Assembly: GCA_965199155.1 (NCBI GenBank)
Contig: CBDAQJ010000002.1
Coordinates: forward strand, 158,171-222,170
Source of the DNA: Acetobacteraceae bacterium
GTDB lineage: Bacteria; Pseudomonadota; Alphaproteobacteria; Acetobacterales; Acetobacteraceae
Length of the DNA: 64,000 nt
Reading direction: 5' to 3'
Shown here one piece after another: positions 9,033 through 63,117 of this stretch (position 1 is the stretch's first letter; each line of letters begins with the position of its first letter). The notes under the pieces are model-generated. The model saw only the letters and a list, made by a program, of their open reading frames with translations, searched no databases and was not told where the DNA came from. Position numbers and translations under genes: made by a program.

Positions 9033-9674
9033 ATGACGACGCGCATGAACAAGACGCGCCTCCTTCTTCTCGCCCTCTGCACCGCCTCGGCGCTGAACCT
9101 GATGACCGCGCGGGCTCACGCCCAGCTCAGCGCGGGCAGTGGCGGCATCGGCGGCGGTCCTGGGGGGGGCGGCGGCGGTCCCGGGGGGGGCGGGGCTGCC
9201 CCGGAGGAGGAAGAGAAGAAGGCACCGCCCCCGCCATCGGCGATCCCGGGCGCGGTCGCCGGCACGGTGGTGCCCGCGTCGAAGAACGCGGCCGATCTCG
9301 ACCCCAACGCCGCCCTGTTCGATGCGATCGATCGCGGCGATATCGGCTCGGCCCGCGAGGCGCTGGGCCGGGGTGCCGACCTCAACGCGCGCAACGTTCT
9401 GGGCCAGCGGCCGATCGACCTGTCGATCGATCTGAGCCGCAACGACATCACCTTCCTGCTGCTGTCGATGCGCTCGCAGAACGGCGACCAGGCGCCGGCG
9501 GCCGATTCGTCGGGCAACGACACGGCGGAGGCCGACCTGCCGCCGTCGCGCAGCGCGCAGGTGGCGGCGACCACGCCCGTGGCCGCCCGCGGCGCGCAGT
9601 TCGCGAGCACGAGCCATGCGAGCGGCGGGACGCCGCAGCCTGGCGCGGGGTTTCTGGGGTTTGGGACGCGCTGA
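9033..9674 (+). CDS. Secreted ankyrin-repeat protein with a Gly-rich N-terminal region
   Basis: In-frame ATG within ORF 8802..9674. Signal peptide MTTRMNKTRLLLLALCTASALNLMTARAHA. ANK-like ALFDAIDRGDIGSAREALGRGADLNARNVLGQRPIDLSI. Confidence 0.7.
   Translation: MTTRMNKTRLLLLALCTASALNLMTARAHAQLSAGSGGIGGGPGGGGGGPGGGGAAPEEEEKKAPPPPSAIPGAVAGTVVPASKNAADLDPNAALFDAIDRGDIGSAREALGRGADLNARNVLGQRPIDLSIDLSRNDITFLLLSMRSQNGDQAPAADSSGNDTAEADLPPSRSAQVAATTPVAARGAQFASTSHASGGTPQPGAGFLGFGTR
9150..9191 (+). repeat. 21-bp tandem duplication, each unit ending in a G8 homopolymer (G8 at 9162-9169 and 9183-9190)
   Basis: GGCGGCGGTCCTGGGGGGGGC / GGCGGCGGTCCCGGGGGGGGC read directly. Lies inside the ankyrin-protein CDS and encodes GGGPGGG x2. 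Confidence 0.9.
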
Positions 9675-9800
9675 GAAGAAGGCCAGGGGCTCTGCCCCTG
9701 GACCGAGCTCAAGGGCAGTCGCCCTTAGAACCCATTCCTTAAGTCACGGGATCCAAGGGGTAAGCCCCTTGGCGGGTCCAGGGCAGAGCCCTGGCCTTCC
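9675..9800. repeat. Four-hairpin palindromic intergenic element, copy 1 (MITE/REP-like)
   Basis: GAAGAAGG-CCAGGGGCtctGCCCCTGG-...-AAGGGCagtcGCCCTT-...-CCAAGGGGtaagCCCCTTGG-cgggt-CCAGGGCagaGCCCTGG-CCTTCC. Starts 1 nt after the ankyrin TGA. Confidence 0.9.
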
Positions 9801-9907
9801 TTGCCGCTCACGCAGGTGTCACCTGCCGCCGCCCCGTTCGTTCAGATGTCGTTAACCATTAGCGCCGAGCTTGGGGTGATCGACCATGATCGAGAAGGAG
9901 CCGCAGG

Positions 9908-10213: not shown

Positions 10214-11305
10214 TTACTCCGCCTCGAGCATCTCGCGCAGCACGTCGATCGCGATCAGCTCGTCGTCCCGCTCCATATGCCAGAACGTCCATCCATTGCA
10301 GGACGGCGTGTTCTGCAGCTGGGCGCCGACCTGGTGGATCGACCCGCGGAGCGTCCCTGCCACCAGCGTGCCGTCGGCGGCGACGGTCGCCGAGACGCGT
10401 CGCAGACGGTCGGTGAGCACCGTGCCGGCGGCGATCCGGCCTTCCTCGACGAGGCGGCCGAACGGGATCCGCTTGGCGGCGCGCTTGGTGGCGCTGCTGG
10501 CCGCAGCACTGCGCGGGATGCGGCGCTCGGCGAGCAGGCGGGCGAGTGCGGCCTCAACATAGGCCGGGTGGCGCTCGATGCCGATGAAGCGGCGGTGCAG
10601 GCGTTTGGCCACGACGGCCGTGGTGCCGGTGCCGAGGAACGGGTCGAGCACCACGTCGTCGATGTCGGTCGAGGCCAGCAGCACGCGGTGCAGCAGGGAT
10701 TCGGGTTTTTGGGTCGGGTGCAGTTTCAGGCCGTGCTCGTTGCGCAGGCGCTCGGGGCCGGTGCAGAGCGGCAGGAGCCAGTCGCTGCGCATCTGCAGGT
10801 CGTCGTTGAGCGCCTTCATGGCCTGGTAGTTGAAGCGGTATCGGCTGGTGCGGCCGCGGGCGGCCCAGATCAGGGTTTCGTGCGCGTTGGTGAAGCGGCG
10901 ACCGCGGAAGTTCGGCATCGGGTTGGATTTGCGCCAGATGACGTCGTTCAGGATCCAGAAGCCCAGCTCCTGCAGGATGGCGCCGATCCGGAAAATGTTG
11001 TGGTAGGAGCCGATCACCCAGAGCGTGCCGTCCTTGACCAGCAGGCGCTGCGCCTCGGTCAGCCATTCGCGGGTGAAGCGGTCGTAGGTCTCGAAATCGG
11101 CGAAGCGGTCCCAGTCCTCGTCGACGCCGTCGACCAGGCTGTCGTCTGGCCGACGCAGTTCGCCACGAAGCTGGAGGTTGTAGGGGGGGTCGGCGAAGAT
11201 GCAGTGGATCGAGGCGGAGGGAAGCATCCGCATCTGGTGGACGCAGTCGCCCCGCAGCACCTGGTCGAGCGGCAGGACTAATCCGCGGTCCACTTCGTCC
11301 CTCAT
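10214..11305 (-). CDS. ccrM: Cell-cycle-regulated DNA adenine methyltransferase, CcrM type (GANTC, beta-class N6-MTase)
   Basis: IFADPPYNLQL (motif IV) near the N-terminus, HPTQKPESLL, VLDPFLGTGTTAVVAKRL (motif I), plus the ~80-aa C-terminal extension typical of CcrM. No adjacent restriction gene. Confidence 0.9.
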   Translation of the reverse strand: MRDEVDRGLVLPLDQVLRGDCVHQMRMLPSASIHCIFADPPYNLQLRGELRRPDDSLVDGVDEDWDRFADFETYDRFTREWLTEAQRLLVKDGTLWVIGSYHNIFRIGAILQELGFWILNDVIWRKSNPMPNFRGRRFTNAHETLIWAARGRTSRYRFNYQAMKALNDDLQMRSDWLLPLCTGPERLRNEHGLKLHPTQKPESLLHRVLLASTDIDDVVLDPFLGTGTTAVVAKRLHRRFIGIERHPAYVEAALARLLAERRIPRSAAASSATKRAAKRIPFGRLVEEGRIAAGTVLTDRLRRVSATVAADGTLVAGTLRGSIHQVGAQLQNTPSCNGWTFWHMERDDELIAIDVLREMLEAE

Positions 11306-11329: not shown

Positions 11330-11947
11330 CTAGCCTGCAAGCTCTAGGGCCAGCTGGCGGACGGTGCCGAAGGCCGCGCGATGGTGCCGGGTGGGGCCGA
11401 GTGCGCGCAGCGCGGTGCGGTGCGCCCCCGTGGCGTAGCCGGCATTGCTGTGCCAGCCGTAGCCGGGGCAGCGCTGGCCGAGGCGGAGCATCAGGCGGTC
11501 GCGCGTGACCTTGGCGACGATCGAGGCCGCCGCGATCGAGAGTGACAGCGCGTCGCCGCCGATCACGCAGCTGGTGGGACAGGCGAGGGTTGGCGCGCGG
11601 TTGCCGTCGATCAGCGCGACGTCGGGGAGCGACGGCAGGCGGCCCACCGCGCGTGCCATGGCGAGCATCGACGCCCAGAGGATGTTGATGCGGTCGATCT
11701 CGGCGACCGAGGCGGCGCCGAGCGCGATCTCGGCCGAACCGGACGCGAGCAGGGCGGCATAGGCGAGATCGCGGGCGGCGGCGTCGAGGCGCTTGCTGTC
11801 GTCGAGCAGCGGGGCGAGGTCGACTGGCACTCCGCGGGGGAAAACCACGGCGGCGGCGAGGACGGGCCCTGCGAGCGGCCCGCGGCCCACCTCGTCGACC
11901 CCTGCCACCCGGCCCCCATGCTGCGATTCGATGGCGAAATCCGGCAT
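11330..11947 (-). CDS. rnhB: Ribonuclease HII
   Basis: [15 protein letters not shown]...SK...[13 protein letters not shown] motifs. 24 nt upstream of ccrM on the same strand. Confidence 0.92.
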
Positions 11948-12031: not shown

Positions 12032-12234
12032 GAAGAAGGCCAGGGGCTCTGCCCCTGGACCCCGTTAAGGGCGGAGCCCTTAAAACCCCCTACTGAAGGT
12101 TGAATTACAGTCGCTGGAGCCGGATTGCGTTAGCCGAAGTCTAATTTCAGGCTTCGCCAGGGAACAACCCAAACAATCAGGGTTCCAAGGGACGACTGTC
12201 CCTTGGCGGGTCCAGGGCAGAGCCCTGGCCTTCC
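12032..12234. repeat. Four-hairpin palindromic element, copy 2 (expanded, ~80 bp extra between hairpins 2 and 3)
   Basis: Termini and hairpins 1, 2 and 4 are nearly identical to copy 1. Hairpin 3 is CCAAGGGACgactGTCCCTTGG. The internal AT-richer segment spans about 12080-12178. Confidence 0.9.
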
Positions 12235-12263
12235 CCTTCGACCGAGAGTTCTCAAACAGCCCC

Positions 12264-12722
12264 TCAGATGCAACGGAGATGGCGCACCGCGAAGGTGCCG
12301 GTGCCGGCCAGACGCGCGGCCACGATGGTCCGGTGGCACAAAGCCGGATCCGCCTCGAAGCAGAGCAGGCAGCATGGCTCGGCGGCAGCCAGCGCTACGG
12401 CCTCGGCGAGCGCGGCGCAGGCGTCGGGTGTCGCGAGATGCGCCTCGTAGATCCGGGCGAGGCCTGCTTCGTCCCCGTTGCGCGCCGCGATCCGGCCGGG
12501 CTTGGGCGTGCCCAGCGCGCGCAGATGGGTGTAGGCGATCCCGACATCGGCGACGCTCGCGGCCAGCATCCGCTTGGAGAAGCCCGGCTTGCGCGACTGG
12601 GGGATGGCGCGGACGTCGAGCAGGCGGGTGGCGCCGCTCGCACGGAGGAAGCCCACGAAGTCGCGGAGCGACAGGCCCTCGTAGCCGATCGTGACCAGGG
12701 GCGTCATGAGGGGCGAGGTCAT
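12264..12722 (-). CDS. DUF488 family protein
   Basis: VTIGYEG...LLDVR..P.SRKPGFSK...LCFE..P..CHR pattern typical of DUF488. Alternative ATG at 12707. Confidence 0.75.
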   Translation of the reverse strand: MTSPLMTPLVTIGYEGLSLRDFVGFLRASGATRLLDVRAIPQSRKPGFSKRMLAASVADVGIAYTHLRALGTPKPGRIAARNGDEAGLARIYEAHLATPDACAALAEAVALAAAEPCCLLCFEADPALCHRTIVAARLAGTGTFAVRHLRCI

Positions 12723-14558: not shown

Positions 14559-15812
14559 ATGGACGAACAGATCAGCCCCCGCCCGGTCGCGCCGCCGGTG
14601 GCGAGCGACGGACGCAGGACCCGCCGCCGGGGCGGCGTCCTTCTTTGGGTCATCCTGATCGGCGCGATCGTGGCGGTGGTGCTCTGGCATCCGTGGGTCG
14701 CGACCGCGCCGAAGCATCCCGCGCAGCCGCCGCAGCCGGTGGCGGTGAGCACGGTCGCGCGCGGCGACATGCCGGTGGTGCTGACCGAGCTCGGCACGGT
14801 GACGCCGCTGGCGACGGTGACCGTGCAGAGCCAGGTGAGCGGCTACCTGCTGCAGGTGAATTTCGAGGAGGGACAGGAGGTCAGGAAGGGCCAGCTGCTG
14901 GCATTGGTCGACCCCCGCCCCTACCAGGTCGAGATCGAGCAGTACACGGCGACGCTCCAGCGCGACCAGGCGGCGCTGCACGAGGCGCAGATGGACCTGG
15001 CGCGCTACCAGGCGCTGGGGCGGCAGAACTCGATCGCCAAGCAGACGCTCGAGGACCAGGTGTTCACGGTGGCGCAGGACGAGGCGGCGACGCGGATCGA
15101 CCAGTCGCAGATCGACAGCGCCAAGCTGAACCTGCAGTACTGCCATATCACGGCGCCGGTCGACGGGCGCGTGGGGCTGCGGCAGATCGATGCCGGGAAC
15201 TACGTGACGGCGTCCGAGACCAACGGGCTGGTGGTGCTGACCGAGATCAAGCCGATCTCGGTGATCTTCACGGTGTCGGAGGACGACATCCAGCCGATCC
15301 TGGCCAAGCTGCAGGGGGGAGCGCCGCTCCAGGTCGATGCCTATGACCGGGCGGATGTGACGAACCTGGCGGCGGGCGCGGTCGAGACGATCGACAACCA
15401 GGTCGATACCAGCACCGGCACCGTGAAGCTGCGCGCGACGTTCCCGAACACCGACGAACGGCTGTTCCCGAACGAGTTCGTCAACGCGCATCTGCTGCTC
15501 GACACGCTCAGGAACGCGATCATCGTGCCCTCGCCCGCGGTGCAGAACGGGCCGAACGGCGCGTTCCTCTACGTGATCGAGCGGACGCAGGAGAAGGGCA
15601 AGCAGGTCGAGAAGGTAGCGGTGCGCAACGTGCAGACCGGCTACGCGCATGCCGAGAAGACGGTGATCAGCTCGGGGCTGAACGACGGCGACCAGGTGGT
15701 GGTCGACGGGACGGACCGGCTGAAGGATGGGGCGGTGGTGACGATCCCGGCCGAGCATCCGGAGGCGAAGGGGCAGCCGGATGGCCATCAGCATCGGCAC
15801 CATCAGGAATGA
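14559..15812 (+). CDS. mdtA: RND efflux periplasmic adaptor, MdtA type
   Basis: VTVQSQVSGYLLQVNFEEGQEVRKGQLLALVDPRPYQ...YCHITAPVDGRVGLRQIDAGNYV. Followed by two RND permease paralogs, as in mdtABC. Confidence 0.9.
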   Translation: MDEQISPRPVAPPVASDGRRTRRRGGVLLWVILIGAIVAVVLWHPWVATAPKHPAQPPQPVAVSTVARGDMPVVLTELGTVTPLATVTVQSQVSGYLLQVNFEEGQEVRKGQLLALVDPRPYQVEIEQYTATLQRDQAALHEAQMDLARYQALGRQNSIAKQTLEDQVFTVAQDEAATRIDQSQIDSAKLNLQYCHITAPVDGRVGLRQIDAGNYVTASETNGLVVLTEIKPISVIFTVSEDDIQPILAKLQGGAPLQVDAYDRADVTNLAAGAVETIDNQVDTSTGTVKLRATFPNTDERLFPNEFVNAHLLLDTLRNAIIVPSPAVQNGPNGAFLYVIERTQEKGKQVEKVAVRNVQTGYAHAEKTVISSGLNDGDQVVVDGTDRLKDGAVVTIPAEHPEAKGQPDGHQHRHHQE

Positions 15813-18800
15813 ACCCGTCGCGCATCTTCATCCTGCGGCCGGTCGCGACCTCGCTGCTGATGATCGCGATCCTGCTGGTGGGGATCATCTCGTTCAAATA
15901 CCTGCCGATCTCGGCGCTGCCGCAGGTCGACTACCCGACGATCCAGGTGAAGACGTTCTATCCGGGGGCGAGCCCGGAGGTGATGACGACGGCGATCACG
16001 GCGCCGCTCGAGTTCGATTTCGGCAGCATGGAGGGGCTGTCGCAGATGGTGTCGCAGAGCTCCGGCGGGGCCTCGGTGATCACGCTGCGGTTCGGGCTCG
16101 ATACCGATCTCGACGAGGACGAGCAGGAGGTGCAGGCCGCCGTCAACGAGGCGAACTCGCTGCTGCCCACCGACCTGCCGGCGCCGCCGGTGTATTCCAA
16201 GATCAACCCGGCGGATGCGCCGGTGATCACGCTGGGTGTCACCAGCAGGACGATGAACCTGGTCGACGTGCAGGACGCGATCAGCACGCGGCTGGCGCAG
16301 AAGCTCAGCGAGATCAGCGGGGTCGGCGCGGTCGAGGTGTCTGGCGGGAATGTCCATGCGTTGCGGGTGCAGCTCAATCAGCGGGCGCTGTACGCGTACG
16401 GGATCTCGCCGGACAACATCCGCACCACGATCGCGAACGTGAACGTCAATTCGCCGAGCGGCGGGTTCGACGGGAAGCTGCAATCGACGACGCTCCGCGA
16501 GGACAGCCAGATCAACGATCCGGAGGTGCTCGCCAATCAGGTGATCACCTATCTGAACGGGGCGCCGATCCGGATCCGCGATGTGGGGCGCGTCGTTGTC
16601 GGGCCGGAGAACAAGTATCTGGCGGCCTGGGCGAACCGGACGCCGGCGCTGGTGGTGAACGTGCAGCGCCAGCCGGGGGCGAACGTGATCGCTACGGTGG
16701 ATGCGATCAAGCGCGCGCTGCCGATGCTGCAGGCGGCACTCCCGGCGGGGATCGACGTGACGCCGCTGGCCGACCGGACGGTGACGATCCGGGCGTCGGT
16801 CAACGATGTGGAGTTCGAGCTGGCGCTGGCCGTGCTGCTGGTGGTCGCGGTGATTTTTGTGTTCCTGCGGTCGCTGCGGGCGACGCTGATCCCGAGCCTG
16901 TCGGTGCCGCTGTCGCTGATCGGCACGCTGGCCGTGATGTACATGCTGGGCTACTCGCTCGACAATCTGTCGCTGATGTCGCTGACGATCGCGTCGGGCT
17001 TTGTGGTCGACGATGCGATCGTGATGATCGAGAATATTTCCCGCTACCTCGAGGAAGGGATGGAGCCGCGGGAGGCCGCACTGGTCGGGTCGCAGCAGAT
17101 CGGCTTCACGATCGTGTCGCTGACGGTGTCGCTGATCGCCGTGCTGATCCCGCTGCTGTTCATGGGCGATGTGACCGGGCGGCTGTTCCATGAGTTTGCG
17201 GTGGTGCTCGGCGTGACCATCGTGATCTCGGGCGTGGTGTCGCTCACGCTGGTGCCGATGCTGTGTGCGCTGCTGCTGCGGAGTTCGGGCGGTGAGCATG
17301 CGCCGCCCGCGCGGCGGAGCTTCATGACGCGGGCGTTCGACGGGCTGATCGGCGGGTATCATCGTGCGCTGCTGGTGGTGCTGGACCATCAGGAGGTCAC
17401 GCTGCTGATCGCGGCGGCGACACTCGCGGGCACCGTGCTGCTGTATGTGGTGATTCCGAAAGGGTTCTTCCCGACGCAGGATACCGGCCTGATCCAGGGC
17501 ATCTCGATCGCGCCCGAGACGGTGTCGTTCGCGACCATGAGCACGCTGCAGCAGAAGCTGGGTGCTGCGATCCTGACCGATCCGGACGTGGTCAGCATCT
17601 CCTCGTTCATCGGCATCGACGGGACCAACACGACGCTCAACCAGGGCCGCTTCGAGATCAGCCTCAAGACGCGCGATACGCGCACGCTCGGGGCGGACGC
17701 GATCGTCGCGCGGCTGGCGGCCGAGACTGCCAACGTCGCCGGCATCCGGCTGACGATGCAGCCGGTGCAGGACCTGACGCTGGCGACGCAGACGAGTGCG
17801 GCGCGCTACCAGTTCGTGCTGATGTCGCCGACGAACGCCGAGTTGGCGCAGATCGCGCCCAAGGTGCTGACCGCGCTGCAGCGACGCCCCGAACTGGTCG
17901 ACGTGAACGACGACCTGCAGCAGAACGGGCGCGGCGTGATGATCACGATCGATCGCGCGACCGCCGCGCGCTTCGGCATCACGCCGGCGACCGTCGATAA
18001 CGCTCTGTATGACGCGTTTGGGCAGCGGCAGATCTCCACGGTCTACACGCAGTCGCAGCAATACCGGATCATCCAGGAGGCGGATCCGACGCTCACGCAC
18101 GACCTCTCGGCGCTGAACCAGATCTACCTGCCGGCGAGCGGGATGACGGCGGGGACCAGCAGCGGATCGTCCTCCGGGGCGACGACGACGCAGGTGCCGC
18201 TCTCGGCGATCGTCAGCGTGCGTGTCGTGCCCGAGCCGCTGCTGGTCACGCATCTCGGGCAGTTCCCGGCGACCACCATGTCGTTCAACCTGGCCCCGGG
18301 CGTGTCGCTCGGGCCGGCGGTCGATGCGGTGCACGCGACCATCGCGGGGCTGCATCTGCCCGGAAGTGCGGAGACGTCGTTCGAGGGGGATGCCGCGTCG
18401 TTCGAAGGTTCGCTCGGCAACGAGCTCTATCTCATCCTGGCGGCGGTGGCCGCCGTCTACATCGTGCTCGGTGTGCTCTACGAGAGTTTTATTCACCCGG
18501 TCACCATCCTGTCGACGCTGCCGTCGGCGGGTGTGGGCGCGTTGCTGACGCTGATGATCGCGGGACATGATCTCGACATCATCGGCATCATCGGTATCGT
18601 GCTGCTGATCGGCATCGTGAAGAAGAACGCCATCATGATGGTGGACTTCGCGCTGCAGGCCGAGCGCGGCGAAGGCAAGTCGCCGCGCGAGGCGATCGAG
18701 CAGGCGGCGTTGCTGCGGTTCCGGCCGATCCTGATGACGACGCTGGCCGCCATGCTCGGCGGCGTGCCGCTGATGCTGGGCCAGGGCACGGGATCGGAAC

Positions 18801-18952
18801 TGCGCCAGCCGCTCGGGCTCGCGATCGTGGGCGGGCTCGCGGTGAGCCAGGTGCTGACGATCTTTACGACGCCGGTGATCTATCTCGCATTCGACCGGGT
18901 GGCGCGGCGCTTCGCCGGACGACGGTCGCGCGATCGCGAGGCGCACGCTTGA
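15809..18952 (+). CDS. mdtB: RND multidrug efflux permease, MdtB type
   Basis: ATGA overlap with mdtA. The N-terminus IFILRPVATSLLMIAILLVGIISFKYLPISALPQVDYPTIQV..YPGASPEVMT closely parallels E. coli MdtB as I recall it. Confidence 0.92.
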   Translation: MNPSRIFILRPVATSLLMIAILLVGIISFKYLPISALPQVDYPTIQVKTFYPGASPEVMTTAITAPLEFDFGSMEGLSQMVSQSSGGASVITLRFGLDTDLDEDEQEVQAAVNEANSLLPTDLPAPPVYSKINPADAPVITLGVTSRTMNLVDVQDAISTRLAQKLSEISGVGAVEVSGGNVHALRVQLNQRALYAYGISPDNIRTTIANVNVNSPSGGFDGKLQSTTLREDSQINDPEVLANQVITYLNGAPIRIRDVGRVVVGPENKYLAAWANRTPALVVNVQRQPGANVIATVDAIKRALPMLQAALPAGIDVTPLADRTVTIRASVNDVEFELALAVLLVVAVIFVFLRSLRATLIPSLSVPLSLIGTLAVMYMLGYSLDNLSLMSLTIASGFVVDDAIVMIENISRYLEEGMEPREAALVGSQQIGFTIVSLTVSLIAVLIPLLFMGDVTGRLFHEFAVVLGVTIVISGVVSLTLVPMLCALLLRSSGGEHAPPARRSFMTRAFDGLIGGYHRALLVVLDHQEVTLLIAAATLAGTVLLYVVIPKGFFPTQDTGLIQGISIAPETVSFATMSTLQQKLGAAILTDPDVVSISSFIGIDGTNTTLNQGRFEISLKTRDTRTLGADAIVARLAAETANVAGIRLTMQPVQDLTLATQTSAARYQFVLMSPTNAELAQIAPKVLTALQRRPELVDVNDDLQQNGRGVMITIDRATAARFGITPATVDNALYDAFGQRQISTVYTQSQQYRIIQEADPTLTHDLSALNQIYLPASGMTAGTSSGSSSGATTTQVPLSAIVSVRVVPEPLLVTHLGQFPATTMSFNLAPGVSLGPAVDAVHATIAGLHLPGSAETSFEGDAASFEGSLGNELYLILAAVAAVYIVLGVLYESFIHPVTILSTLPSAGVGALLTLMIAGHDLDIIGIIGIVLLIGIVKKNAIMMVDFALQAERGEGKSPREAIEQAALLRFRPILMTTLAAMLGGVPLMLGQGTGSELRQPLGLAIVGGLAVSQVLTIFTTPVIYLAFDRVARRFAGRRSRDREAHA

Positions 18953-21900
18953 ATATTTCCGCGCCGTTCATCGCGCGACCGGTCGCGACAACGCTGCTCG
19001 CGGTGGCGATGGTGATCGCCGGCATGTTCGCGTTCGTGCGGCTGCCAGTGGCCCCGATCCCGTCGGTCGATTTCCCGACCATCCAGGTGCAGGCGCAGGA
19101 AGCGGGGGCCAGCCCCGACATCATCGCGAGCACGGTCGCCGAGCCTTTGGAACTCCATCTCGCGGCGATCGCCGACGTCACCGAGATCACCTCGCAGAAC
19201 ACGCTCGGCGAAAGCCGGATCACCATCCAGTTCGCACTCTCGCGCGACATCAACGGGGCGGCGCGCGACGTCGAGGCGGCGATCCAGGCGGCGCGCGCCG
19301 ACCTGCCGTCGACGCTGCGCACGAACCCGAGCTATCACAAGTTCAACCCGGCGGGCTCGCCGGTGATGGTGCTGGCGCTGACATCGAAGACGCGCACGCC
19401 GGCACAGCTCTACGACTCCGCCGAGAACATCATCGCCCAGCGCCTGCAGCAGGTGACGGGCGTGGGCTTCGCCGATATCGGCGGCAGCGCGCTGCCCGCC
19501 GTGCGCGTCGAGCTGAACCCGCAGGCGCTGTTCAAGTTCGGGATCGGGCTCGAGACGCTGCGCGCCGCGATCGCGTCCGCCAACGCCGACACGCCGAAGG
19601 GCGTGATCGACACCCCGAGCGGACGGTTTCAGCTCTACACGAACGACATCGCGAGCAAGGCTGCTCAATACCGCAAGCTGATCGTGGGCTGGATCAACCA
19701 GTCGCCGGTGAAGCTCGCCGATGTCGCGACCATCGAGGACAGCACCGAGGATCTGCGCGAGGCGGGTTTCCTGAACGCCGAGCAGGCGGTGGTGATGATC
19801 ATCTTCCCGACACCGGGGGCGAACATCGTCAAGACGATCGACAGCATCCGCGCGGTGCTGCCGGAGCTCACGCTCCAGCTGCCGGCGGACGAGAAGCTGA
19901 CGGTTGCCGCCGATCGCTCGATCGCGATCCGCGCCTCGCTCGCCGACACCGAGCGCACGCTGGTGATCGCGGTGATCCTGGTGACGCTGGTCACCTACCT
20001 GTTCCTGCGCAACCTGCGCGCGACGATCATCCCGTCGGTGGTCGTGCCCGCCTCGATCATCGCGACGTTCGGGCCGATGTACCTGCTCGGCTTCTCGCTC
20101 GACAATCTCTCGCTGATGGCACTCACGGTCGCCACCGGCTTCGTGGTCGACGATGCGATCGTGGTGCTGGAGAACATCTCGCGGCACATGGAAGACGGGA
20201 TGGGCCGCCATGACGCAGCGTTGCTCGGCGCACGCGAGGTGGGCTTCACCGTGCTGTCGATCACCGTCTCGCTGATCGCGGTGTTCGTGCCGATCCTGCT
20301 GATGCAGGGGATCGTGGGACGGCTGTTCCGCGAGTTCGCGGTGACGCTCTCGATCACCATCGTGATCTCGATGGTGCTGGCGCTCACGCTCACGCCGATG
20401 ATGTGCTCGCTGTTCCTCGAGCCGCCGCCGCATGCGGCCGATCCGGACCATCGGCCGAACATCGTGCTGCGCGGCGCCGAGCGCGTGCTCGACTGGATGC
20501 TGCGGGGCTACGAGCGCAGCCTGCGCTGGTCGCTGCGGCACGGCGTGCTGCTGATGCTGTCGCTGGTCGCGGCCGTGGTGGGGACCGGCTATCTCGCCAC
20601 CAAGGTTCCGAAAGGGTTCTTCCCGAACCAGGATACCGGGCTGATGATGGGCACGCTCCAGGGCGACCAGAGCATCTCGTTCCAGAACATGTCGCGCAAG
20701 TTGCGCCAGGCGCAGCGCATCATCGCGGCCGACCCGGCGGTGCAGAGCGTGATCGGCTTTACGGGCGGCCGCGGCACCAATCAGGGGCAGATGTTCGTCC
20801 AGCTCAAGCCGCTCGCCCAGCGCGTGGCGGTGGAGCTGGTGATCGCGCGACTGCGCCCGAAGCTTTCGCATCTCGTCGGTGCGCGCGCCTTTCTGTTCGG
20901 CGCCGAGGACGTGCGCGCGGGCGGACGGCAAAGCAACGCCGCCTACCAGTACACGCTGCAGGCCGATGACTCGCAGCTGCTCTACCAATGGACGCCGAAG
21001 CTCGTGGCGGCGCTGCAGAAGCGGGCCGAGCTTACGGATGTCAGTTCCGATCAACAGCAGGGCGGTCTCGAAACCGAGGTCGGGATCGACCGCAACACTG
21101 CCGGACGCCTGGGTGTCACGCCGGCGGCGATCGACGACACGCTGTACGACGCCTACGGACAGCGGCTGGTGTCGACCATCTTCACGCAGCTCGCGCAGTA
21201 TCACGTCGTTCTCGAAGTGGCCCCGCGCTACTGGCAGGATGCGGATAGTTTGAGCCAGATCTATGTCAGCACCTCGCCGGTGACGGTTGCGGGGACGGCC
21301 AGCACCAGCACGATCACCAACGGCACGCGGACCAGTGCCGGCACCAACAGCAACGCCACGAACAACGTGACCGAGGGAAGCGCCACCGCCACCTCGGCGA
21401 CCTCGAGTGCGAGCGCGGCCACGGCAGCCGAAGCGGCACTGTCGATCAACTCGCTCGCGAGCGGCGGCTCGGCCTCGACCTCGGCGGCCGCCTCGGTCGC
21501 GACATCATCCTCGACCATGGTGCCGCTGAAAGCGATCACCACCATCAGGACGGGCTTCACGCCGATCACGGTGAACCATCAGGGCGAGTTCGTGGCCTCC
21601 ACGGTCTCGTTCAACCTGCCCACGGGCGAGGCGCTCGGCGTGGCCGCGCAGGTGATCAACGAGGAGGCGCTCGCGATCGGCATGCCGCACTCGATCCGCG
21701 GCGCATTCGCGGGAACCGCGCTGCAGTTCCAGCAGCAGGTCTCGAACGAGCCGGTGCTGATCTTCGCCGCACTCTGCGCGATCTACATCACGCTCGGCGT
21801 GCTCTACGAGAGCTACATCCACCCGCTGACGATCCTGTCCACGCTGCCGTCCGCGGGCGTGGGCGCACTGCTGGCACTTGTGCTGACGGGGCACGAGCTC

Positions 21901-22287
21901 GACGTGATTGGCTTCATCGGCATCATCCTGCTGATCGGCATCGTCAAGAAGAACGCGATCCTGCTGGTCGACTTCGCGCTGTCGGCGGAGCGCGAGCAGG
22001 GCATGTCGCCGGTCGATGCGATCACCGCCGCCTGCCTGCTGCGCTTCCGGCCGATCATGATGACGAGTTTCGCGGCCGCTTTCGGCGCATTGCCGCTCGC
22101 GTTCGGATCGGGCGAAGGTGCGACGCTGCGCCAGCCGCTCGGCATCTCCATCGTCGGCGGACTGATCGTCAGCCAGGCGCTGACGCTCTACACGACGCCC
22201 GTCGTCTATCTCGCCCTCGATCGGATGCGGCACCGCTTCAATGCGCGTCACCGCCGTCCCGGAGCCGCCACGGCCATTCAAGCATGA
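18949..22287 (+). CDS. mdtC: RND multidrug efflux permease, MdtC type, with an ~80-aa Ser/Thr/Ala-rich insertion
   Basis: TTGA overlap with mdtB (TTG start). RPVATTLLAVAM...LPVAPIPSVDFPTIQV...RDINGAARDVEAAI parallels E. coli MdtC. 1112 aa versus about 1025 as typical. Confidence 0.9.
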   Translation: MNISAPFIARPVATTLLAVAMVIAGMFAFVRLPVAPIPSVDFPTIQVQAQEAGASPDIIASTVAEPLELHLAAIADVTEITSQNTLGESRITIQFALSRDINGAARDVEAAIQAARADLPSTLRTNPSYHKFNPAGSPVMVLALTSKTRTPAQLYDSAENIIAQRLQQVTGVGFADIGGSALPAVRVELNPQALFKFGIGLETLRAAIASANADTPKGVIDTPSGRFQLYTNDIASKAAQYRKLIVGWINQSPVKLADVATIEDSTEDLREAGFLNAEQAVVMIIFPTPGANIVKTIDSIRAVLPELTLQLPADEKLTVAADRSIAIRASLADTERTLVIAVILVTLVTYLFLRNLRATIIPSVVVPASIIATFGPMYLLGFSLDNLSLMALTVATGFVVDDAIVVLENISRHMEDGMGRHDAALLGAREVGFTVLSITVSLIAVFVPILLMQGIVGRLFREFAVTLSITIVISMVLALTLTPMMCSLFLEPPPHAADPDHRPNIVLRGAERVLDWMLRGYERSLRWSLRHGVLLMLSLVAAVVGTGYLATKVPKGFFPNQDTGLMMGTLQGDQSISFQNMSRKLRQAQRIIAADPAVQSVIGFTGGRGTNQGQMFVQLKPLAQRVAVELVIARLRPKLSHLVGARAFLFGAEDVRAGGRQSNAAYQYTLQADDSQLLYQWTPKLVAALQKRAELTDVSSDQQQGGLETEVGIDRNTAGRLGVTPAAIDDTLYDAYGQRLVSTIFTQLAQYHVVLEVAPRYWQDADSLSQIYVSTSPVTVAGTASTSTITNGTRTSAGTNSNATNNVTEGSATATSATSSASAATAAEAALSINSLASGGSASTSAAASVATSSSTMVPLKAITTIRTGFTPITVNHQGEFVASTVSFNLPTGEALGVAAQVINEEALAIGMPHSIRGAFAGTALQFQQQVSNEPVLIFAALCAIYITLGVLYESYIHPLTILSTLPSAGVGALLALVLTGHELDVIGFIGIILLIGIVKKNAILLVDFALSAEREQGMSPVDAITAACLLRFRPIMMTSFAAAFGALPLAFGSGEGATLRQPLGISIVGGLIVSQALTLYTTPVVYLALDRMRHRFNARHRRPGAATAIQA

Positions 22288-24827: not shown

Positions 24828-25877
24828 ATGAAACTGTTCACCTGCCAGGCGTGCCAGTCGATGCTGTTCTTCGAGAACCGCCGCTGCGAATGCTGCGGCC
24901 ACGCGCTCGGCTACCTGCCGGACCTCGCCGAGCTGTCGGCGCTCGAAGCGGATGGCGATGCGTTCATGGCACTTGGCGAGCCCACGCGGCGCTACCGGCT
25001 CTGCGCAAACGCGGAGCATGACGTCTGCAACTGGCTGGTCGAGGCGGATGCGCCCAACCCGTACTGCGCCGCCTGCTGCCACAATCGCACCATCCCGGAT
25101 ATCGGAGGCGCGGAGAGCCTGGAGCGCTGGCGGAAGCTGGAGTTTGCCAAGCACCGGCTGTTCTACTCGCTGATCCGGTTGGGCATCCCCCTTCCCGATC
25201 GGAACCAGGACCCGAACGAGGGGCTGGTGTTCGACTTCCTCGAGGAGCAGCCGGGTCACAAGGTGCTGACCGGGCACGACAACGGCATCATCACCATCGC
25301 CGCCAAGGAAGCCGATGACGGGGTGCGCGAGGAGCTCCGCCACCAGATGCACGAGAGCTACCGCACGCTGCTCGGCCATTTCCGCCACGAGGTCGGGCAC
25401 TGGATCTGGGACCGGCTGGTGCGCGACGGCGGCCATCTGGAGGAATGCCGCGCGCTGTTCGGTGACGACACGCTCGACTACCAGGCGGCGCTGAACCGGC
25501 ACTACGCGGAAGGTGCGCCGGCGAACTGGAGCGACCACCACATCTCGGCCTACGCGACCACCCATCCGTGGGAGGACTTTGCCGAGACCTGGGCGCACTA
25601 TCTGCACATCATGGACACGCTGGAGACGGGTAGCGCGTTCGGCATCTCGGTGCGGCCGGTGGCAGCGCCGGCGGGGGACCTGTCGACCGATGTGAGGCTC
25701 GATCCCTATCGTACCGCGGATTTCGGCGTTCTGCTCGACGGTTGGCTGCCGCTGGTGTTTGCGGTGAACAGCCTGAACCGGAGCATGGGGTTGTCGGATC
25801 TCTATCCGTTCGTGATCAGCGACGATGTGCGGCGGAAGCTGGGGTTCATGCACATGATTGCGCGTGGGGCGGACTAG
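24828..25877 (+). CDS. Zinc-ribbon plus putative HExxH zinc-metallopeptidase domain protein (uncharacterised family)
   Basis: N-terminal CQAC...CECCG zinc ribbon. HFRHEVGHWIW (HExxH) and HPWEDFAETWAHY. In-frame ATG inside ORF 24372..25877, with an alternative ATG at 24798. Confidence 0.75.
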   Translation: MKLFTCQACQSMLFFENRRCECCGHALGYLPDLAELSALEADGDAFMALGEPTRRYRLCANAEHDVCNWLVEADAPNPYCAACCHNRTIPDIGGAESLERWRKLEFAKHRLFYSLIRLGIPLPDRNQDPNEGLVFDFLEEQPGHKVLTGHDNGIITIAAKEADDGVREELRHQMHESYRTLLGHFRHEVGHWIWDRLVRDGGHLEECRALFGDDTLDYQAALNRHYAEGAPANWSDHHISAYATTHPWEDFAETWAHYLHIMDTLETGSAFGISVRPVAAPAGDLSTDVRLDPYRTADFGVLLDGWLPLVFAVNSLNRSMGLSDLYPFVISDDVRRKLGFMHMIARGAD

Positions 25878-25999
25878 AAGAAGGCCAGGGGCTCTGCCCC
25901 TGGACCCCGCCAGGAGGGAAGGCCCTCCTGGACCTGCCTATTGAAAGGGGTCTGGGGTTAAGACCCCAGCGGGTCCAGGGCAGAGCCCTGGATTCTTCC
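25877..25999. repeat. Four-hairpin palindromic element, copy 3
   Basis: Shares the G of the upstream TAG stop. Hairpins: CCAGGGGCtctGCCCCTGG, CCAGGAGGGaaggCCCTCCTGG, CTGGGGTtaagACCCCAG, CCAGGGCagaGCCCTGG. Ends 26 nt before the rplQ stop on the opposite strand. Confidence 0.9.
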
Positions 26000-26025: not shown

Positions 26026-26460
26026 TCAATCGTAGTCGTTCGGGCTCTCGTCATCCTCGCGCGCTTCGGGCTTCGGGCCGCTGTCGAGGCCCTTCGCCGA
26101 GGGATCGCGATCCACCAGCTCGATCACCGCCATGTCGGCGGCATCGCCGTAGCGCACGCCGGCCTTCAGCACCCGCGTGTAGCCGCCGGCGCGTGCCTTG
26201 TAGCGATCGGCGATCGTCGAGAAGAGCTTGGAGACGATCACGTCGTCCCGCAGCTGCGCATAGGCCTGGCGGCGTGCATGCAGACCGCCGCGCTTGCCGA
26301 GCGTGATCAGGCGCTCCGCATACGGGCGGAGCTCCTTGGCCTTGGGCAGCGTGGTGGTGATCTGCTCGTGCTTGATCAGCGCCACCGCCATGTTGCGGAA
26401 CATGGCGAGGCGGTGGGACGAGGTGACGCCGAGCTTACGGCCGGCAATTCCGTGACGCAT
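26026..26460 (-). CDS. rplQ: 50S ribosomal protein L17
   Basis: [24 protein letters not shown]... canonical L17. Follows rpoA. Confidence 0.97.
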
Positions 26461-39763: not shown

Positions 39764-40072
39764 TCAGATCTTGATTTCGACGTCGACGCCCGAGGCCAGG
39801 TCGAGCTTCATCAGCGCGTCCACGGTCTGCGGGGTCGGCTCGACGATGTCGAGAAGCCGGCGATGGGTCCGGATCTCGAACTGCTCACGGCTCTTCTTGT
39901 CCACGTGCGGCGAGCGGTTCACCGTGAAGCGCTCGATATGCGTGGGAAGGGGGATGGGTCCCCGAACCCGCGCGCCCGTCCGCTTCGCCGTGTTCACGAT
40001 CTCCCGCGTGCTGTTGTCCAGCACGCGGTGATCGTACGCCTTGAGGCGAATGCGGATGTTCTGGTTGTCCAT
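39764..40072 (-). CDS. rpsJ: 30S ribosomal protein S10
   Basis: [14 protein letters not shown]...GPIPLPT...[18 protein letters not shown] canonical S10. Confidence 0.98.
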
Positions 40073-40121
40073 GGTCTTACAAAATCCAGTTCGGGCTGCG
40101 CGCGCGGGTTCGGGTCACCGA

Positions 40122-41312
<1,191 letters not shown>

Positions 41313-41371
41313 CGTCGTCTCTCCGCTACCGGTTCAATCGGAACCGTGCTTCGGGTTGAACTTCTCTTCTC

Positions 41372-41848
41372 TTACCAGCGGTAGTGGCTGAAGGCCTTGT
41401 TCGCCTCGGCCATCCGGTGGGTGTCTTCACGCTTCTTCACGGCCGAACCGCGGTTGTTCACCGCGTCGTTCAGCTCGTTCGAGAGCCGCTCTTCCATCGT
41501 GTGCTCGCCGCGCTTGCGCGACGCATCGATGATCCAGCGGATCGCGAGGGCCTGGCGGCGCTCGGTGCGCACCTCGACGGGGACCTGGTAGGTCGCACCA
41601 CCGACGCGGCGCGAGCGAACCTCGACAGCCGGCTTCACATTCTCGAGCGCCTCGTGGAACATGCGCACCGGATCGCCCGATGCACCGCCACGGCGACGCA
41701 GCGTGTCGAGCGCACCGTAGACGATGCCCTCGGCAGCTGACTTCTTCCCATCATACATCAGCGCATTCATAAAACGCGTGATGACCTGGTCGCCGAACTT
41801 CGGGTCCGGCAGGATCTCGCGCTTCACGGCGCGGTGGCGGCGGCTCAT
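41372..41848 (-). CDS. rpsG: 30S ribosomal protein S7
   Basis: [20 protein letters not shown]...[19 protein letters not shown] canonical S7. Confidence 0.98.
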
Positions 41849-41862
41849 CCCTGGTCTCTCTC

Positions 41863-42234
41863 TTACTTCGGCCGCTTCGCGCCGTAGAGCGAACGACGCT
41901 TGCGACGCTTGGCGATGCCCTGGGTGTCGAGCACGCCGCGGAGGATATGATAGCGCACGCCCGGCAGATCCTTCACGCGGCCGCCGCGGATCAGCACGAC
42001 CGAATGTTCCTGCAGGTTGTGCCCCTCGCCGGGGATGTAGCTCACGACCTCGAAGCCGTTGGTCAGCCGCACCTTGGCGACCTTACGAAGCGCCGAGTTC
42101 GGCTTCTTCGGGGTCACCGTATAGACGCGCGTGCAGACGCCGCGCTTCTGCGGGCAACCCTGCAGCGCCGGCACCTTGTTGCGCTTGGCAGCAGGCTCGC
42201 GGCCCTTCGTAATCAGCTGGTTGATCGTCGGCAT
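41863..42234 (-). CDS. rpsL: 30S ribosomal protein S12
   Basis: MPTINQLI..G...[29 protein letters not shown] canonical S12. Confidence 0.99.
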
Positions 42235-42612: not shown

Positions 42613-43926
42613 ATGCGCACATCAAGGCTCGGCGTCGCCGTTGTGGCTTTCGCGGCCGTCCTCCACACGCCGGCGCTGGCGAACGACTCGGCCGCCGACA
42701 CGGAACGTGGCCTCGCTGTGTTCGGCCGCGTGTTCGAGACCATCCACGACAACTACGTCCACAGCGTCACGCGGGACGCGTTGGCGCGTGCCGCGATCGA
42801 CGGCATGCTCGCGAGCCTCGACCCGCACAGCGCCTACCTCCCCGAACCCGACTACGAGGCGCGCGAGGCGCTGCTGTCCGGCCGCTTCGCCGGCATCGGC
42901 CTCGACCTGCAGGACCGGCAAGGCATCGTGACGGTGGTGGCCCCCGTGGCGGGCAGCCCGGCCGCGGCCGCGGGCCTGCAACCGGGCGACCGTCTCCTGC
43001 GCGTCGACGGGCGCGACGTCGCCAATCTCCTGCTCGACGACGTGGTGGCACGGATCAAGGGCGAGCCCGGAACCACGGTCCGCCTGGCCGTCGAGACGGC
43101 GTCCCACAAGGTCCGCACGCTTCGCCTGAGGCGCGTGATGGTCCACATGCCGGTGGTCCAGTCGTCGCTGTTCGGCACCCGGGCCTATATCAAGTTGACG
43201 ACCTTCGACTCCGAGGCCGGCGCTGCCGTGGCCGCGTCCTGGGCGGCGCTCGCGCAGCAGGCCGGCGGGCCGCCTACGGGCCTCGTGCTCGACCTGCGTG
43301 GCAACCCGGGCGGCGAGGTCGACCAGGCAGTCGCGGTCGCCAGCCTTTTCATCCGTCGCGGCGCGATCGTCTCGATGCGCGGCCGCGATCGCGGCGACGA
43401 TGCCAGCTTCGGGGCGCACGGCCAGGACATCACGAGCGGCGCGCCGATCGTGGTGCTCTCGGATGCGAGCACCGCGTCGGCGAGCGAGATCGTCGCGGGC
43501 GCCCTGCAGGACCACGACCGCGCCGCGATCCTGGGCACCCGCTCCTTCGGCAAGGGCTCGGTCCAGGAGATGTTGCCGCTCGACGGTGACGGCGCTCTGG
43601 TGCTCACCACCGCGCTCTACTTCACCCCGAGCGGGCGTTCGATCCAGGGCCTCGGCATCGTGCCCGACATCGTCGTGCACGAAGCGCGCGACGAGCCCAA
43701 CGCGGCGGGCTCCACCGAGGCCACGCTGCCGCACGCGATCGAGCCGGTGGATGCGACCGACGTGCCGCGCGTCTCGCCCTGGCGGGCACTCGCGGGCGCC
43801 ATCGCGTCGCGCCCGCCCGCGACCTGGCCGGAGTTCGACGCGACCCTTCCTGCCACCGACTTCCAGCTGCAGCAGGGGTTAAAGCTGCTCGGGCTGATGT
43901 CCACCACCATGACGGCGCAGCGGTGA
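42613..43926 (+). CDS. S41-family C-terminal processing (tail-specific) peptidase with PDZ domain
   Basis: Internal ATG 42613 with GAGGA 7 nt upstream. Signal peptide MRTSRLGVAVVAFAAVLHTPALA. PDZ GIGLDLQDRQGIVTVVAPVAGSPAAAAGLQPGD. LDLRGNPGG, catalytic-Ser region SDASTASASEIVAG and GTRSFGKGSVQ. Confidence 0.88.
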   Translation: MRTSRLGVAVVAFAAVLHTPALANDSAADTERGLAVFGRVFETIHDNYVHSVTRDALARAAIDGMLASLDPHSAYLPEPDYEAREALLSGRFAGIGLDLQDRQGIVTVVAPVAGSPAAAAGLQPGDRLLRVDGRDVANLLLDDVVARIKGEPGTTVRLAVETASHKVRTLRLRRVMVHMPVVQSSLFGTRAYIKLTTFDSEAGAAVAASWAALAQQAGGPPTGLVLDLRGNPGGEVDQAVAVASLFIRRGAIVSMRGRDRGDDASFGAHGQDITSGAPIVVLSDASTASASEIVAGALQDHDRAAILGTRSFGKGSVQEMLPLDGDGALVLTTALYFTPSGRSIQGLGIVPDIVVHEARDEPNAAGSTEATLPHAIEPVDATDVPRVSPWRALAGAIASRPPATWPEFDATLPATDFQLQQGLKLLGLMSTTMTAQR

Positions 43927-44057
43927 TGCCCGTCGCATTCGGGCTGCACAGCTTCGGCGATCTCTCGGGCAGGGACGTCTCGGCAACACGGGTGCTGCGG
44001 GACGTGGCCTCCGAGGTCGCGCTCCCGGACGAGGTGGGCGTCGAACTGCTCAAGTAA
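43926..44057 (+). pseudogene. 43-codon remnant resembling the N-terminus of a luciferase-like (LLM class) flavin-dependent oxidoreductase
   Basis: Below the ORF-track size cutoff. My translation is MPVAFGLHSFGDLSGRDVSATRVLRDVASEVALPDEVGVELLK*. The ..FGL.SFGD......LR...E.A...E.G...F pattern matches LLM N-termini. The ATG overlaps the ctp TGA (TGATG). The frame ends at a TAA that is the first bases of repeat copy 4. Confidence 0.5.
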
Positions 44058-44175
44058 GAGTTGGGGCTCTGCCCCAAACCCCGCCAGGGAACTGGTCCCC
44101 TGGACCACCTTGAGTTGGCAGGTCCAGGACTGCTTGTCCTGGAGGGGGTGAAGGGGGCAGAGCCCCCTTCCCTTC

Positions 44176-44178
<3 letters not shown>
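44056..44178. repeat. Four-hairpin palindromic element, copy 4 (divergent stems)
   Basis: Hairpins: TTGGGGCtctGCCCCAA, CCAGGGAactggTCCCCTGG, TCCAGGACtgcttGTCCTGGA, GAAGGGGGCagaGCCCCCTTC. The left end overlaps the TAA of the LLM remnant and the right end (CTTCTTA) overlaps the rpoC TAA. Confidence 0.85.
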
Positions 44179-53829: not shown

Positions 53830-54083
53830 TGTCCCGTCTCCAGATATGGCCAGAGGCACAGCGCCCCCGGCCGGTTCACCCGAGCGGCACGCGCGTGCGC
53901 GCCGCTCCGCCTGTCCGGAAGACGAAACCCCGTCAGGGCTTCGACCCCGTCTCCCGCGCGCCGGGGGCGAGCCCCCGATTAAAGCCCCCGTTCAGAAGAA
54001 CAGGCGCTGCGTGCAGTCTCGGACAGGTCGGGGCACCCGAAAGTGCCCCTGCGCGCCACCCGCAAAGGTGGCGAATTTCCGCG

Positions 54084-62998: not shown

Positions 62999-63117
62999 AA
63001 GATTGGGGCTCTGCCCCAAACCCCGCCAGGGTCGAGCCGATCCTGGACCTGCCTAACGAAGGGGGTCTGGGGCCAAGGCCCCAGCGGGGTCCAGGGGCAG
63101 AGCCCCTGGCCTTCTAA
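62999..63117. repeat. Four-hairpin palindromic element, copy 5
   Basis: Hairpins: TTGGGGCtctGCCCCAA, CCAGGgtcgagccgatCCTGG, CTGGGGCCaaGGCCCCAG, CCAGGGGCagaGCCCCTGG. The right end GGCCTTCTA overlaps the histidine-kinase TAG stop (63114-63116, minus strand). Confidence 0.9.

Follow-up and report, generated by a model that had tools for sequence, protein, structure and literature searches.

A probable REP/BIME-type composite palindrome at gene ends in Acetobacteraceae

Introduction

What kind of sequence is an array of four hairpins, ~125-135 bp long, that recurs five times in 64 kb of a bacterial contig, always between genes and at a gene 3' end? The question is raised by a 64,000-nucleotide stretch of contig CBDAQJ010000002.1 from an Acetobacteraceae bacterium, referred to here at its full length as the window. 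An initial annotation, made from the sequence alone, reported five copies of the element and likened them to repeats of the repetitive extragenic palindrome (REP), bacterial interspersed mosaic element (BIME) and miniature inverted-repeat transposable element (MITE) types. All five copies are present, all five are intergenic at gene 3' ends, and the likeness is apt. With reasonable, if not high, confidence we identify the element as a REP/BIME-type composite palindrome that is chromosomal, non-coding and distributed throughout the Acetobacteraceae.

Results

A covariance model of the element (R1), run with filters off over the entire 64-kb window, matches the five copies and no others; no further site falls below E = 0.5. 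The sequence GGGCWSWGCCC is found ten times in the window, twice per copy, against a shuffle expectation of 0.43, and none of 100 shuffles reaches ten. The best model strand is plus for copies 1-3 and minus for copies 4-5, and a profile search places copy 4 slightly higher on plus. Each copy is matched on both strands because the element is almost perfectly palindromic. A weak model match at 53922-53989 (minus strand, 10 bits, E 0.56), between rplJ-side genes, is probably a mere GC-rich hairpin outside the repeat family.

An exact-pattern scan of 185,579 species genomes returned at least 109 loci. Among the matches listed, these are overwhelmingly Acetobacteraceae metagenome-assembled genomes (MAGs), together with Asaia, Gluconacetobacter and Gluconobacter oxydans; a few listed matches from Stenotrophomonas, Streptomyces and other taxa belong to different elements. 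R1 gives 375 matches (both strands counted) in 727 kb of pattern-matched loci. An nhmmer profile applied to 860 kb of element-bearing loci, which are pieces of ~8 kb per genome, identifies 218 sites; 151 of these are full length. Scanning related DNA with a covariance model, as the initial annotation had proposed, thus yields matches family-wide, and its suspicion of a dispersed family, prompted by a density of five copies per 64 kb, is borne out across the Acetobacteraceae. In the plasmids searched the family is nearly absent, with one weak partial match, in Rhodovastum.

Two pattern matches on viral contigs were rejected as family members, being unrelated hairpins of AT-rich giant-virus DNA. 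The giant-virus MAG concerned (IMG/VR; contigs L193, 13960-14115, and L194, 8850-8985) carries isolated GC-rich hairpins (GGGGGCTCTGCCCCC), some of them in inverted pairs, on AT-rich contigs.

The family is real and abundant, apparently undescribed, and of a well-known REP/BIME-like kind. The Rfam look-up that had also been proposed (Rfam 15, whole window) gave no match at gathering score and, in E-value mode, only sub-threshold miRNA-hairpin noise on copy 1, so no prior name was found there. Literature searches by name (REP, REPIN, RAYT and MITE in acetic acid bacteria), with subscription journals, Dfam and ISfinder outside their coverage, gave no description of the family, and searches with core 11- to 13-mers gave unrelated eukaryotic matches only. 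A 2025 tool paper (RepRanger) counted 1,369 generic 'REPs' in Lichenicola cladoniae, a member of the Acetobacteraceae, without giving sequence (PMC12306157).

The element is an inverted dimer of a two-hairpin unit. Each unit runs from an SAAGG tail through hairpin A (CCAGGGGC-TCT-GCCCCTGG) and ACCCCGCC to a variable hairpin B, and two units meet at a conserved CTTAAG centre. In an alignment of 98 copies (A2), the left half reads nGnAAGnAAGG-CCAGGGGC TCT GCCCCTGG-ACCCCGCC-(hairpin 2)-GGAAnCCnnTnCTTAAGnnAnGG and the right half continues (hairpin 3)-CGGGT-CCAGGGC AGA GCCCTGG-CCTTSCTT. Conservation dies out ~14 nt beyond the end hairpins. Among the 151 full-length profile matches, which were not chosen on the exact core, the loops are TCT in 136 and AGA in 141, and the core stem is GGGGC in 120 and GAGGC in 22, both within perfectly paired stems (e.g. 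TTGAGGC). Hairpin 2 occurs as 41 distinct sequences and hairpin 3 as 59. The proposed four-hairpin architecture fits these copies better than does a plain description by terminal inverted repeats, and the stems first quoted for the window read as quoted: CCAGGGGC/GCCCCTGG or TTGGGGC/GCCCCAA in hairpin 1, GAAGGGGGC/GCCCCCTTC in hairpin 4 of copy 4, all five variants of hairpin 3, and the terminal loops TCT and AGA.

These sequences are short, high-copy, extragenic, imperfect palindromes with a shared consensus, as REPs are, and they combine alternating palindromes with interchangeable modules in the manner of a BIME mosaic. Longer variants of 150-190 nt carry an extra hairpin module of ~50 nt (e.g. 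GGCTTTTCCGACGATCCAGGCGGATCGTCGGAACC) between hairpins 3 and 4 (L082, 7003-7189; L108, 6133-6318; L076, 344-531 and 4103-4291; L083, 1166-1351; L074, 2365-2550), which is further evidence for a modular family. Solo halves are also present. In three loci (L048, 5215-7331; L016, 190-2100; L083, 5292-6436), ordinary genes are bracketed by solo half-elements of matching orientation. The genes between these halves, which stand 1-2 kb apart, encode a sigma-54 activator with a PspA neighbour, a solute-binding/molybdopterin protein and a glyoxalase-like protein. Such pairs may be remnants of two elements or products of inter-element recombination.

Conservation acts hairpin by hairpin: each of the four is kept as a separate palindrome, and the thermodynamically best end-to-end pairing is not preserved. 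For the four local hairpins, 90-92% of stem positions are Watson-Crick paired (91.7% of cells, against 81.9% after shuffling), and the covariation score of 0.286 (0.128 shuffled) is reached by none of 500 shuffles. Sliding the structure along the alignment lowers pairing to 24-62%. Stem changes therefore are compensatory to a degree well above both controls, as the initial annotation had read them. The thermodynamic optimum of the full single strand pairs the ends together in one stem with two inner hairpins. Cross-arm pairing nevertheless reaches only 54% at variable outer positions, where local pairing reaches 70%, and 70% for the inner hairpins, where local pairing reaches 92%. Counted by copy, local pairing is favoured over cross pairing by 70 to 2 for outer hairpins 1/4 and by 116 to 3 for inner hairpins 2/3. 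Arm-to-arm pairing is thus not kept, and the '~30-bp terminal inverted repeat' falls as a conserved feature; the copies appear to have one because their two end hairpins are similar and self-complementary.

The constraint on the hairpins is symmetric between the strands. Relative to the gene that reads into the element, the two orientations are found 41 and 35 times in contexts with one gene tail, and the tail-facing ends overall are the hairpin-1 side in 85 cases and the hairpin-4 side in 82. Mismatches in transcript orientation are G:T in 57 cases and A:C in 52. With no strand-specific G:U signal and no orientation bias, these counts argue for a DNA-level or bidirectional constraint rather than a one-strand RNA gene. 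The earlier reading of covariation as selection on structure therefore holds in that the hairpins are kept, whereas covariation alone does not establish selection at the RNA level. One lead, unproven, is a mild asymmetry in which G:T mismatches are concentrated in the 3' half and A:C mismatches in the 5' half. It would agree with a use of the exit-side hairpins at the RNA level, whichever way transcription runs, but it shrinks to 69 vs 44 once hairpins are de-duplicated and may be an artefact of orientation assignment. Copy-to-copy conversion, which is seen at orthologous sites, could also contribute to the symmetric stem constraint.

Comparison of orthologous sites shows the element to be retained between genomes. 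In two MAGs whose flanking sequences are ~93% identical, orthologous sites retain the element, and in one pair hairpin 4 differs by a double compensatory change (CT...AG to TC...GA). At other orthologous sites one half-element has been swapped for a different module, or one copy has been half lost. Among the loci compared, all orthologous pairs at 89-95% flank identity are filled in both genomes (one copy half-deleted); one site at ~78% flank identity lacks the element. Copies within a genome are old, with a median identity of 74% and a maximum of 96%. The family behaves as a slow, vertically persistent repeat population with inter-copy conversion, not the product of a recent burst.

Elements are associated with gene ends in the wider collection as in the window. 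Locus gene calls are crude and based on G+C content at third codon positions (GC3); they place 76 elements in tail-head, 37 in tail-tail and 17 in head-head contexts, the last class being probably overestimated. At ~47% of tail-facing ends a stop codon lies within -4 to +12 nt of the terminal AAGG. Under a null of uniform placement in free intergenic space, 67 such stops are observed against 54.8 expected, and where the free space is at least 60 nt, 24 are observed against 7.1 expected. The stop-codon association, which had been judged by eye, survives this null.

Element-adjacent stops are also unusual in kind. They are TAA or TAG in 60% of cases, compared with 33% in other genes (Fisher p = 1.2e-5), and the stops nearest the hairpin continue into it as TAA-GGCC..., TAG-GAAGGCC... 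or TAG-AAGGCC..., which keeps the register of the SAAGG consensus. Both a T-A-R-G target preference and joint selection for stop plus terminal motif fit this enrichment, and the data cannot separate them. A T-A-R-G target would mean stop codons because, at GC3 near 90%, T-A-R-G is largely confined to them.

The ends of the element bear some likeness to intrinsic terminators. For rpoC, the S41 peptidase gene and rplQ alike, the only terminator-like sites downstream are the end hairpins of the element. Past rplQ the sole such site is the hairpin of copy 3 at 25903-25885, followed by CCTTCTTCTA, and in copy 4 both terminal hairpins are flagged as terminator-like. Exit tails have at least four T in 8 nt at 67% of ends (background 4.8%) and at least five at 18% (background 1%), and on the entry side the SAAGG tail, rich in purines, is the complement of the CCTTSCTT tract that serves the opposite direction. 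As predicted from these features, the exit-side hairpin plus CCTTSCTT tail would be weakly terminator-like in both directions.

Neighbours of the five window copies were identified by Pfam and GC3 analysis. Copy 1 (9675-9800, plus strand; model match 9672-9805, 105.3 bits, E 8.7e-22) is a full element. It begins with the terminal sequence GAAGAAGG, followed by hairpin 1 at 9683-9701 (CCAGGGGC TCT GCCCCTGG), hairpin 2 at ~9711-9726 and a central CCTTAAG; hairpin 3 at 9753-9772, CGGGT, hairpin 4 at 9778-9794 (CCAGGGC AGA GCCCTGG) and a CCTTCC tail complete it. Its fold z-scores are -7.5 as DNA and -6.9 as RNA. Copy 1 is immediately adjoined by the TGA stop (9672-9674, plus strand) of an open reading frame (ORF, ~9033-9674) for a secreted ankyrin-like protein, which has a signal-peptide-like start and an in-frame GC3 of 0.9 over 9270-9674. 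Copy 2 (12032-12234, plus strand) reads as two halves, at 12032-12101 and 12170-12235, because ~80 nt of unique sequence, which matches nothing elsewhere, interrupts its centre. This copy lies 28 nt past the stop of a DUF488 gene (12264-12722, minus strand) and upstream of the RNase HII gene (11330-11947, minus strand).

Copy 3 (25877-25999, plus strand, 98.1 bits) stands between a Peptidase_Mx gene and rplQ (L17), which converge on it; its first base is shared with the Peptidase_Mx TAG stop (25875-25877), and the rplQ stop (26026-26028) is 26 nt past its other end. Copy 4 (44056-44178, minus strand) directly follows the native rpoC stop (TAA, 44176-44178, minus strand), with both rpoC and rpoB confirmed by Pfam; on its far side, the stop of the S41 peptidase gene at 43926 is 130 nt distant. 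Copy 5 (62999-63117, minus strand, 108.5 bits) has the TAG of a histidine kinase gene (63114-63116, minus strand) embedded in its terminus as TAG|AAGGCCAGGGGC, and a GPR1/FUN34/YaaH-family gene lies downstream. Four copies thus touch a real stop (TGA, TAG, TAA and TAG), in keeping with the contacts first described, except that a 'TAA' at the left end of copy 4 (44055-44057) ends no real gene. The RpoC C-terminus ...AAE* is common to the window and 11 relatives, the Peptidase_Mx domain ends six residues before the protein stop, and the HATPase_c domain ends two residues before the kinase stop. The stops that abut these elements are therefore native rather than made by truncation.

Three other features of the window were recorded. 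Between copies 1 and 2, adjoining the RNase HII gene, a DNA methylase gene (10214-11305, minus strand) encodes N6_N4_Mtase and RAMA domains, a CcrM-like architecture. Two plus-strand ORFs at 15809-18952 and 18949-22287 (~1050-1110 aa) share long DNA stretches that are 72-77% identical at an offset of 3326 nt, which appear as repeat families D1, D2, D6, D8 and D12; by their sequence they look like tandem paralogous genes for large transporters. At 39764-42234 (minus strand) the gene order is rpsL (S12), rpsG (S7), tuf (EF-Tu), rpsJ (S10); only ~60 nt separate the S7 and EF-Tu genes, and fusA (EF-G) is absent from its usual str-operon place. The same order is found in three metagenome contigs (L190-L192) that encode an identical S12.

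Discussion

Placement and end structure suggest what the element could do. A transcript entering from either side would meet a distal GC-rich hairpin followed by CCUUSCUU, which would act as a weak intrinsic terminator, a barrier to 3' exonucleases, or both. A proximal hairpin that begins 4-15 nt past the stop codon could slow terminating ribosomes, by analogy with the ribosome stalling that Liang et al. (2015; cited in PMC12306157 and PMC5082802) are said to report for E. coli REPs located within 15 nt of a stop. A trans-acting enzyme that recognises the fixed-loop hairpin, together with inter-copy conversion, would slowly spread and homogenise the element, with no part played by a one-strand RNA gene. 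Taken alone, this mechanism of a symmetric gene-end module is plausible, just short of probable. The element probably shapes transcript 3' ends and the expression of the upstream gene.

Several observations weigh against the REP/BIME interpretation or against parts of it. The copies share ancestry, and the shuffle statistics overstate their independence. Stop proximity partly just reflects very short intergenic spaces, and the gene calls behind it are crude, one call in the window being wrong. The U-tract is not continuous (CCUUSCUU), and no more than 18% of ends satisfy a simple terminator rule. A clean filled/empty pair was looked for among the loci and none was obtained, so that we infer mobility from dispersal alone. 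The element is absent from all 80 metagenomic rpoC relatives, which carry ordinary hairpin-plus-T terminators where the window has copy 4; the relatives are only 59-87% identical over the C-terminal 350 residues and too distant for exact junctions. No mobilising enzyme was found by tblastn with E. coli RayT, which gave nothing below E = 0.2 in the 860 kb of element-bearing loci, a weak test since pieces of ~8 kb per genome were searched and distant RAYT groups could be missed. The intervals between split halves hold ordinary genes, with no transposase or autonomous partner. As to target-site duplication, 105 aligned flanks contain no direct repeat and no conserved base outside the SAAGG tail, and none is shared by the five window copies.

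Other accounts of the family differ mainly in what they take to move or constrain it. A true population of REPs or REPINs (REP doublets forming hairpins), which we regard as possible if unlikely, would consist of inverted doublets moved by a single-copy REP-associated tyrosine transposase (RAYT, an HUH Y1 transposase) that recognises the TCT-loop hairpin on single-stranded DNA, with gene-end placement a side effect of insertion tolerance. REPINs with a RAYT resemble the element in being non-coding, chromosomal inverted doublets (~110-130 bp) with solo halves, and the single weak plasmid match, the absence of strand bias and the fixed loops with covarying stems, as expected of a structure-specific DNA enzyme, agree with this account. 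So does the long vertical persistence at orthologous sites, since REPINs persist vertically over long times (10.1101/2022.05.22.493013; PMC5581495), and Stenotrophomonas GTAG-type REPs have the same GGGGC-TCT-GCCCC hairpin core. However, REP superfamilies carry a GTAG or CGTC tetranucleotide head at one palindrome end, and CGTC repeats are reported missing in Acetobacteraceae (Di Nocera et al., 2013; PMC3733652), whereas the consensus here, AAGG-CCAGGGGC...GCCCCTGG-ACCCCGCC, has neither head beside its hairpins, their flanks being AAGG and ACCCCGCC. The weak tblastn test detected no RayT-like ORF in the loci, the 96% maximum within genomes leaves no identical or near-identical 'master' copies, and each small hairpin is conserved while the cross-arm pairing that defines the long doublet hairpin is not maintained. 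A separate reading that we judge rather improbable is a mobile 'gene-end cassette' with true stop-codon specificity. Either by targeted insertion or by selection for overlap, it would come to lie on TAA/TAG-G stops and take the stop into its terminal SAAGG pentamer; it would combine in one unit a ribosome-proximal hairpin and a two-way terminator, and be spread family-wide by a hairpin-specific enzyme other than a known RAYT of the GTAG/CGTC type. A classical MITE, derived by deletion from an insertion sequence, ending in ~30-bp terminal inverted repeats and moved in trans by the DDE transposase of that insertion sequence, could have TA-containing targets that at 68% GC are mostly stop codons. 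Its size (~125 bp), inverted ends, dispersal and presence/absence variation between distant relatives would fit, and a T-A-R-G type target would account for stop adjacency and the excess of TAA/TAG. We nonetheless hold it quite improbable: there is no target-site duplication and no base conserved beyond the SAAGG tail, outer-boundary T is not enriched except as part of a stop codon, the stop-to-element distance varies from -4 to +12 nt, arm-to-arm complementarity is poorer than that within hairpins, split ends enclose no transposase, and the copies are old and divergent.

Two further accounts place the constraint in a structure or a bound protein. The element could be the DNA site of a host architectural protein (of IHF, gyrase or nucleoid type, as in E. 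coli BIME/RIB), bound at the AT-richer CTTAAG centre between cruciform-prone palindromes, a proposal compatible with the REP/BIME reading. It would explain the conserved centre GGAAnCCnnTnCTTAAGnnAnGG between GC-rich palindromes and the strand-symmetric constraint, and matches to WATCAANNNNTTR with one mismatch are found in 21 of 151 copies against 1 of 151 shuffles. It is highly doubtful, as the exact integration host factor (IHF) consensus occurs in 0 of 151 copies and the centre accommodates 80 nt of inserted sequence in copy 2 and longer insertions at other sites. Selection for a strand-specific structured RNA, either a small RNA gene or a cis-regulatory element of the 3' untranslated region (3'-UTR), is very improbable indeed. 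The predicted folds are strong (RNA z-scores -4.5 to -6.9), the stems covary, the position is that of a 3'-UTR, and multi-palindrome repeats of the Br-REP1 type in Bradyrhizobium are transcribed as small RNAs (PMC5082802). Yet the folds are as significant for DNA as for RNA, the upstream gene meets the element equally often in either orientation, G:U is not in excess over A:C in transcript orientation, no promoter-like sites flank copies 3 and 4, and Rfam gave only noise.

Whatever its mode of spread, the element offers a searchable repeat family for the Acetobacteraceae, including the industrial acetic acid bacteria Gluconobacter, Gluconacetobacter and Asaia. It marks gene ends, among them those of the rpoBC operon and of the ribosomal-protein operon that ends in rplQ, and is thus relevant to annotation, operon prediction, strain typing and expression engineering. 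It is also a clean case in which evolution preserves each hairpin rather than the pairing of an inverted repeat, and in which host stop codons are built into the terminus of a repeat. Should a mobilising enzyme other than a RAYT exist, the range of known REP-type systems would widen.

Among known systems, the E. coli REP/BIME repeats share with the Acetobacteraceae element its organisation as hundreds of short extragenic palindromes in inverted units with variable linkers (a mosaic) and its position past gene 3' ends, in many cases no more than 15 nt from the stop. Their proposed roles include transcription attenuation, stabilisation of mRNA 3' ends and translation control. In contrast to them, the Acetobacteraceae element lacks a GTAG/CGTC head, is unrelated in sequence, has no RAYT found in its loci, has a unit of two hairpins (one constant, one variable) rather than one, and belongs to an alphaproteobacterial host family in which a 2013 survey found no CGTC repeats (PMC3733652). 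Br-REP1 and Br-REP2 of Bradyrhizobium are, like the element, alphaproteobacterial intergenic repeats of several consecutive palindromes that lie in the overlapping 3'-UTRs of convergent genes, and the abundance of their individual palindromes differs between species (PMC5082802). Br-REP1 differs in its unrelated core (CCGGAATCTCGAGATTCCGG), in having three palindromes rather than a four-hairpin inverted dimer and in its host family.

Comparable to Br-REP1/Br-REP2 are the rhizobial RIME elements, also alphaproteobacterial intergenic repeats with multiple palindromes. Neisseria Correia elements, dispersed between genes and ~100-150 bp long, likewise have inverted ends and can serve as signals for transcript ends or processing. 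Their TA target duplications, true terminal inverted repeats and IHF sites have no demonstrable counterpart in the Acetobacteraceae element. The SMAG repeats of Stenotrophomonas maltophilia, GTAG-type REPs, have an identical terminal hairpin core and loop (GGGGC-TCT-GCCCC / GGGGC-AGA-GCCCC). In four Stenotrophomonas loci (L009, L035, L044 and L053) the sequence is GTAGAGC-GGGGC-TCT-GCCCC-GCT; the 13-nt core is common to the Acetobacteraceae end hairpins, and the flanks differ. SMAG repeats have GTAGAGC directly 5' of the stem and form single or paired short hairpins; in the Acetobacteraceae element the flanks are AAGGCCA / ACCCCGCC, and two inner hairpins are present in addition. Convergence or a common recognition logic may account for the core that they share. 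Set beside all of these repeats, the most unusual features of the Acetobacteraceae element are its hairpin-by-hairpin conservation and its embedding of stop codons.

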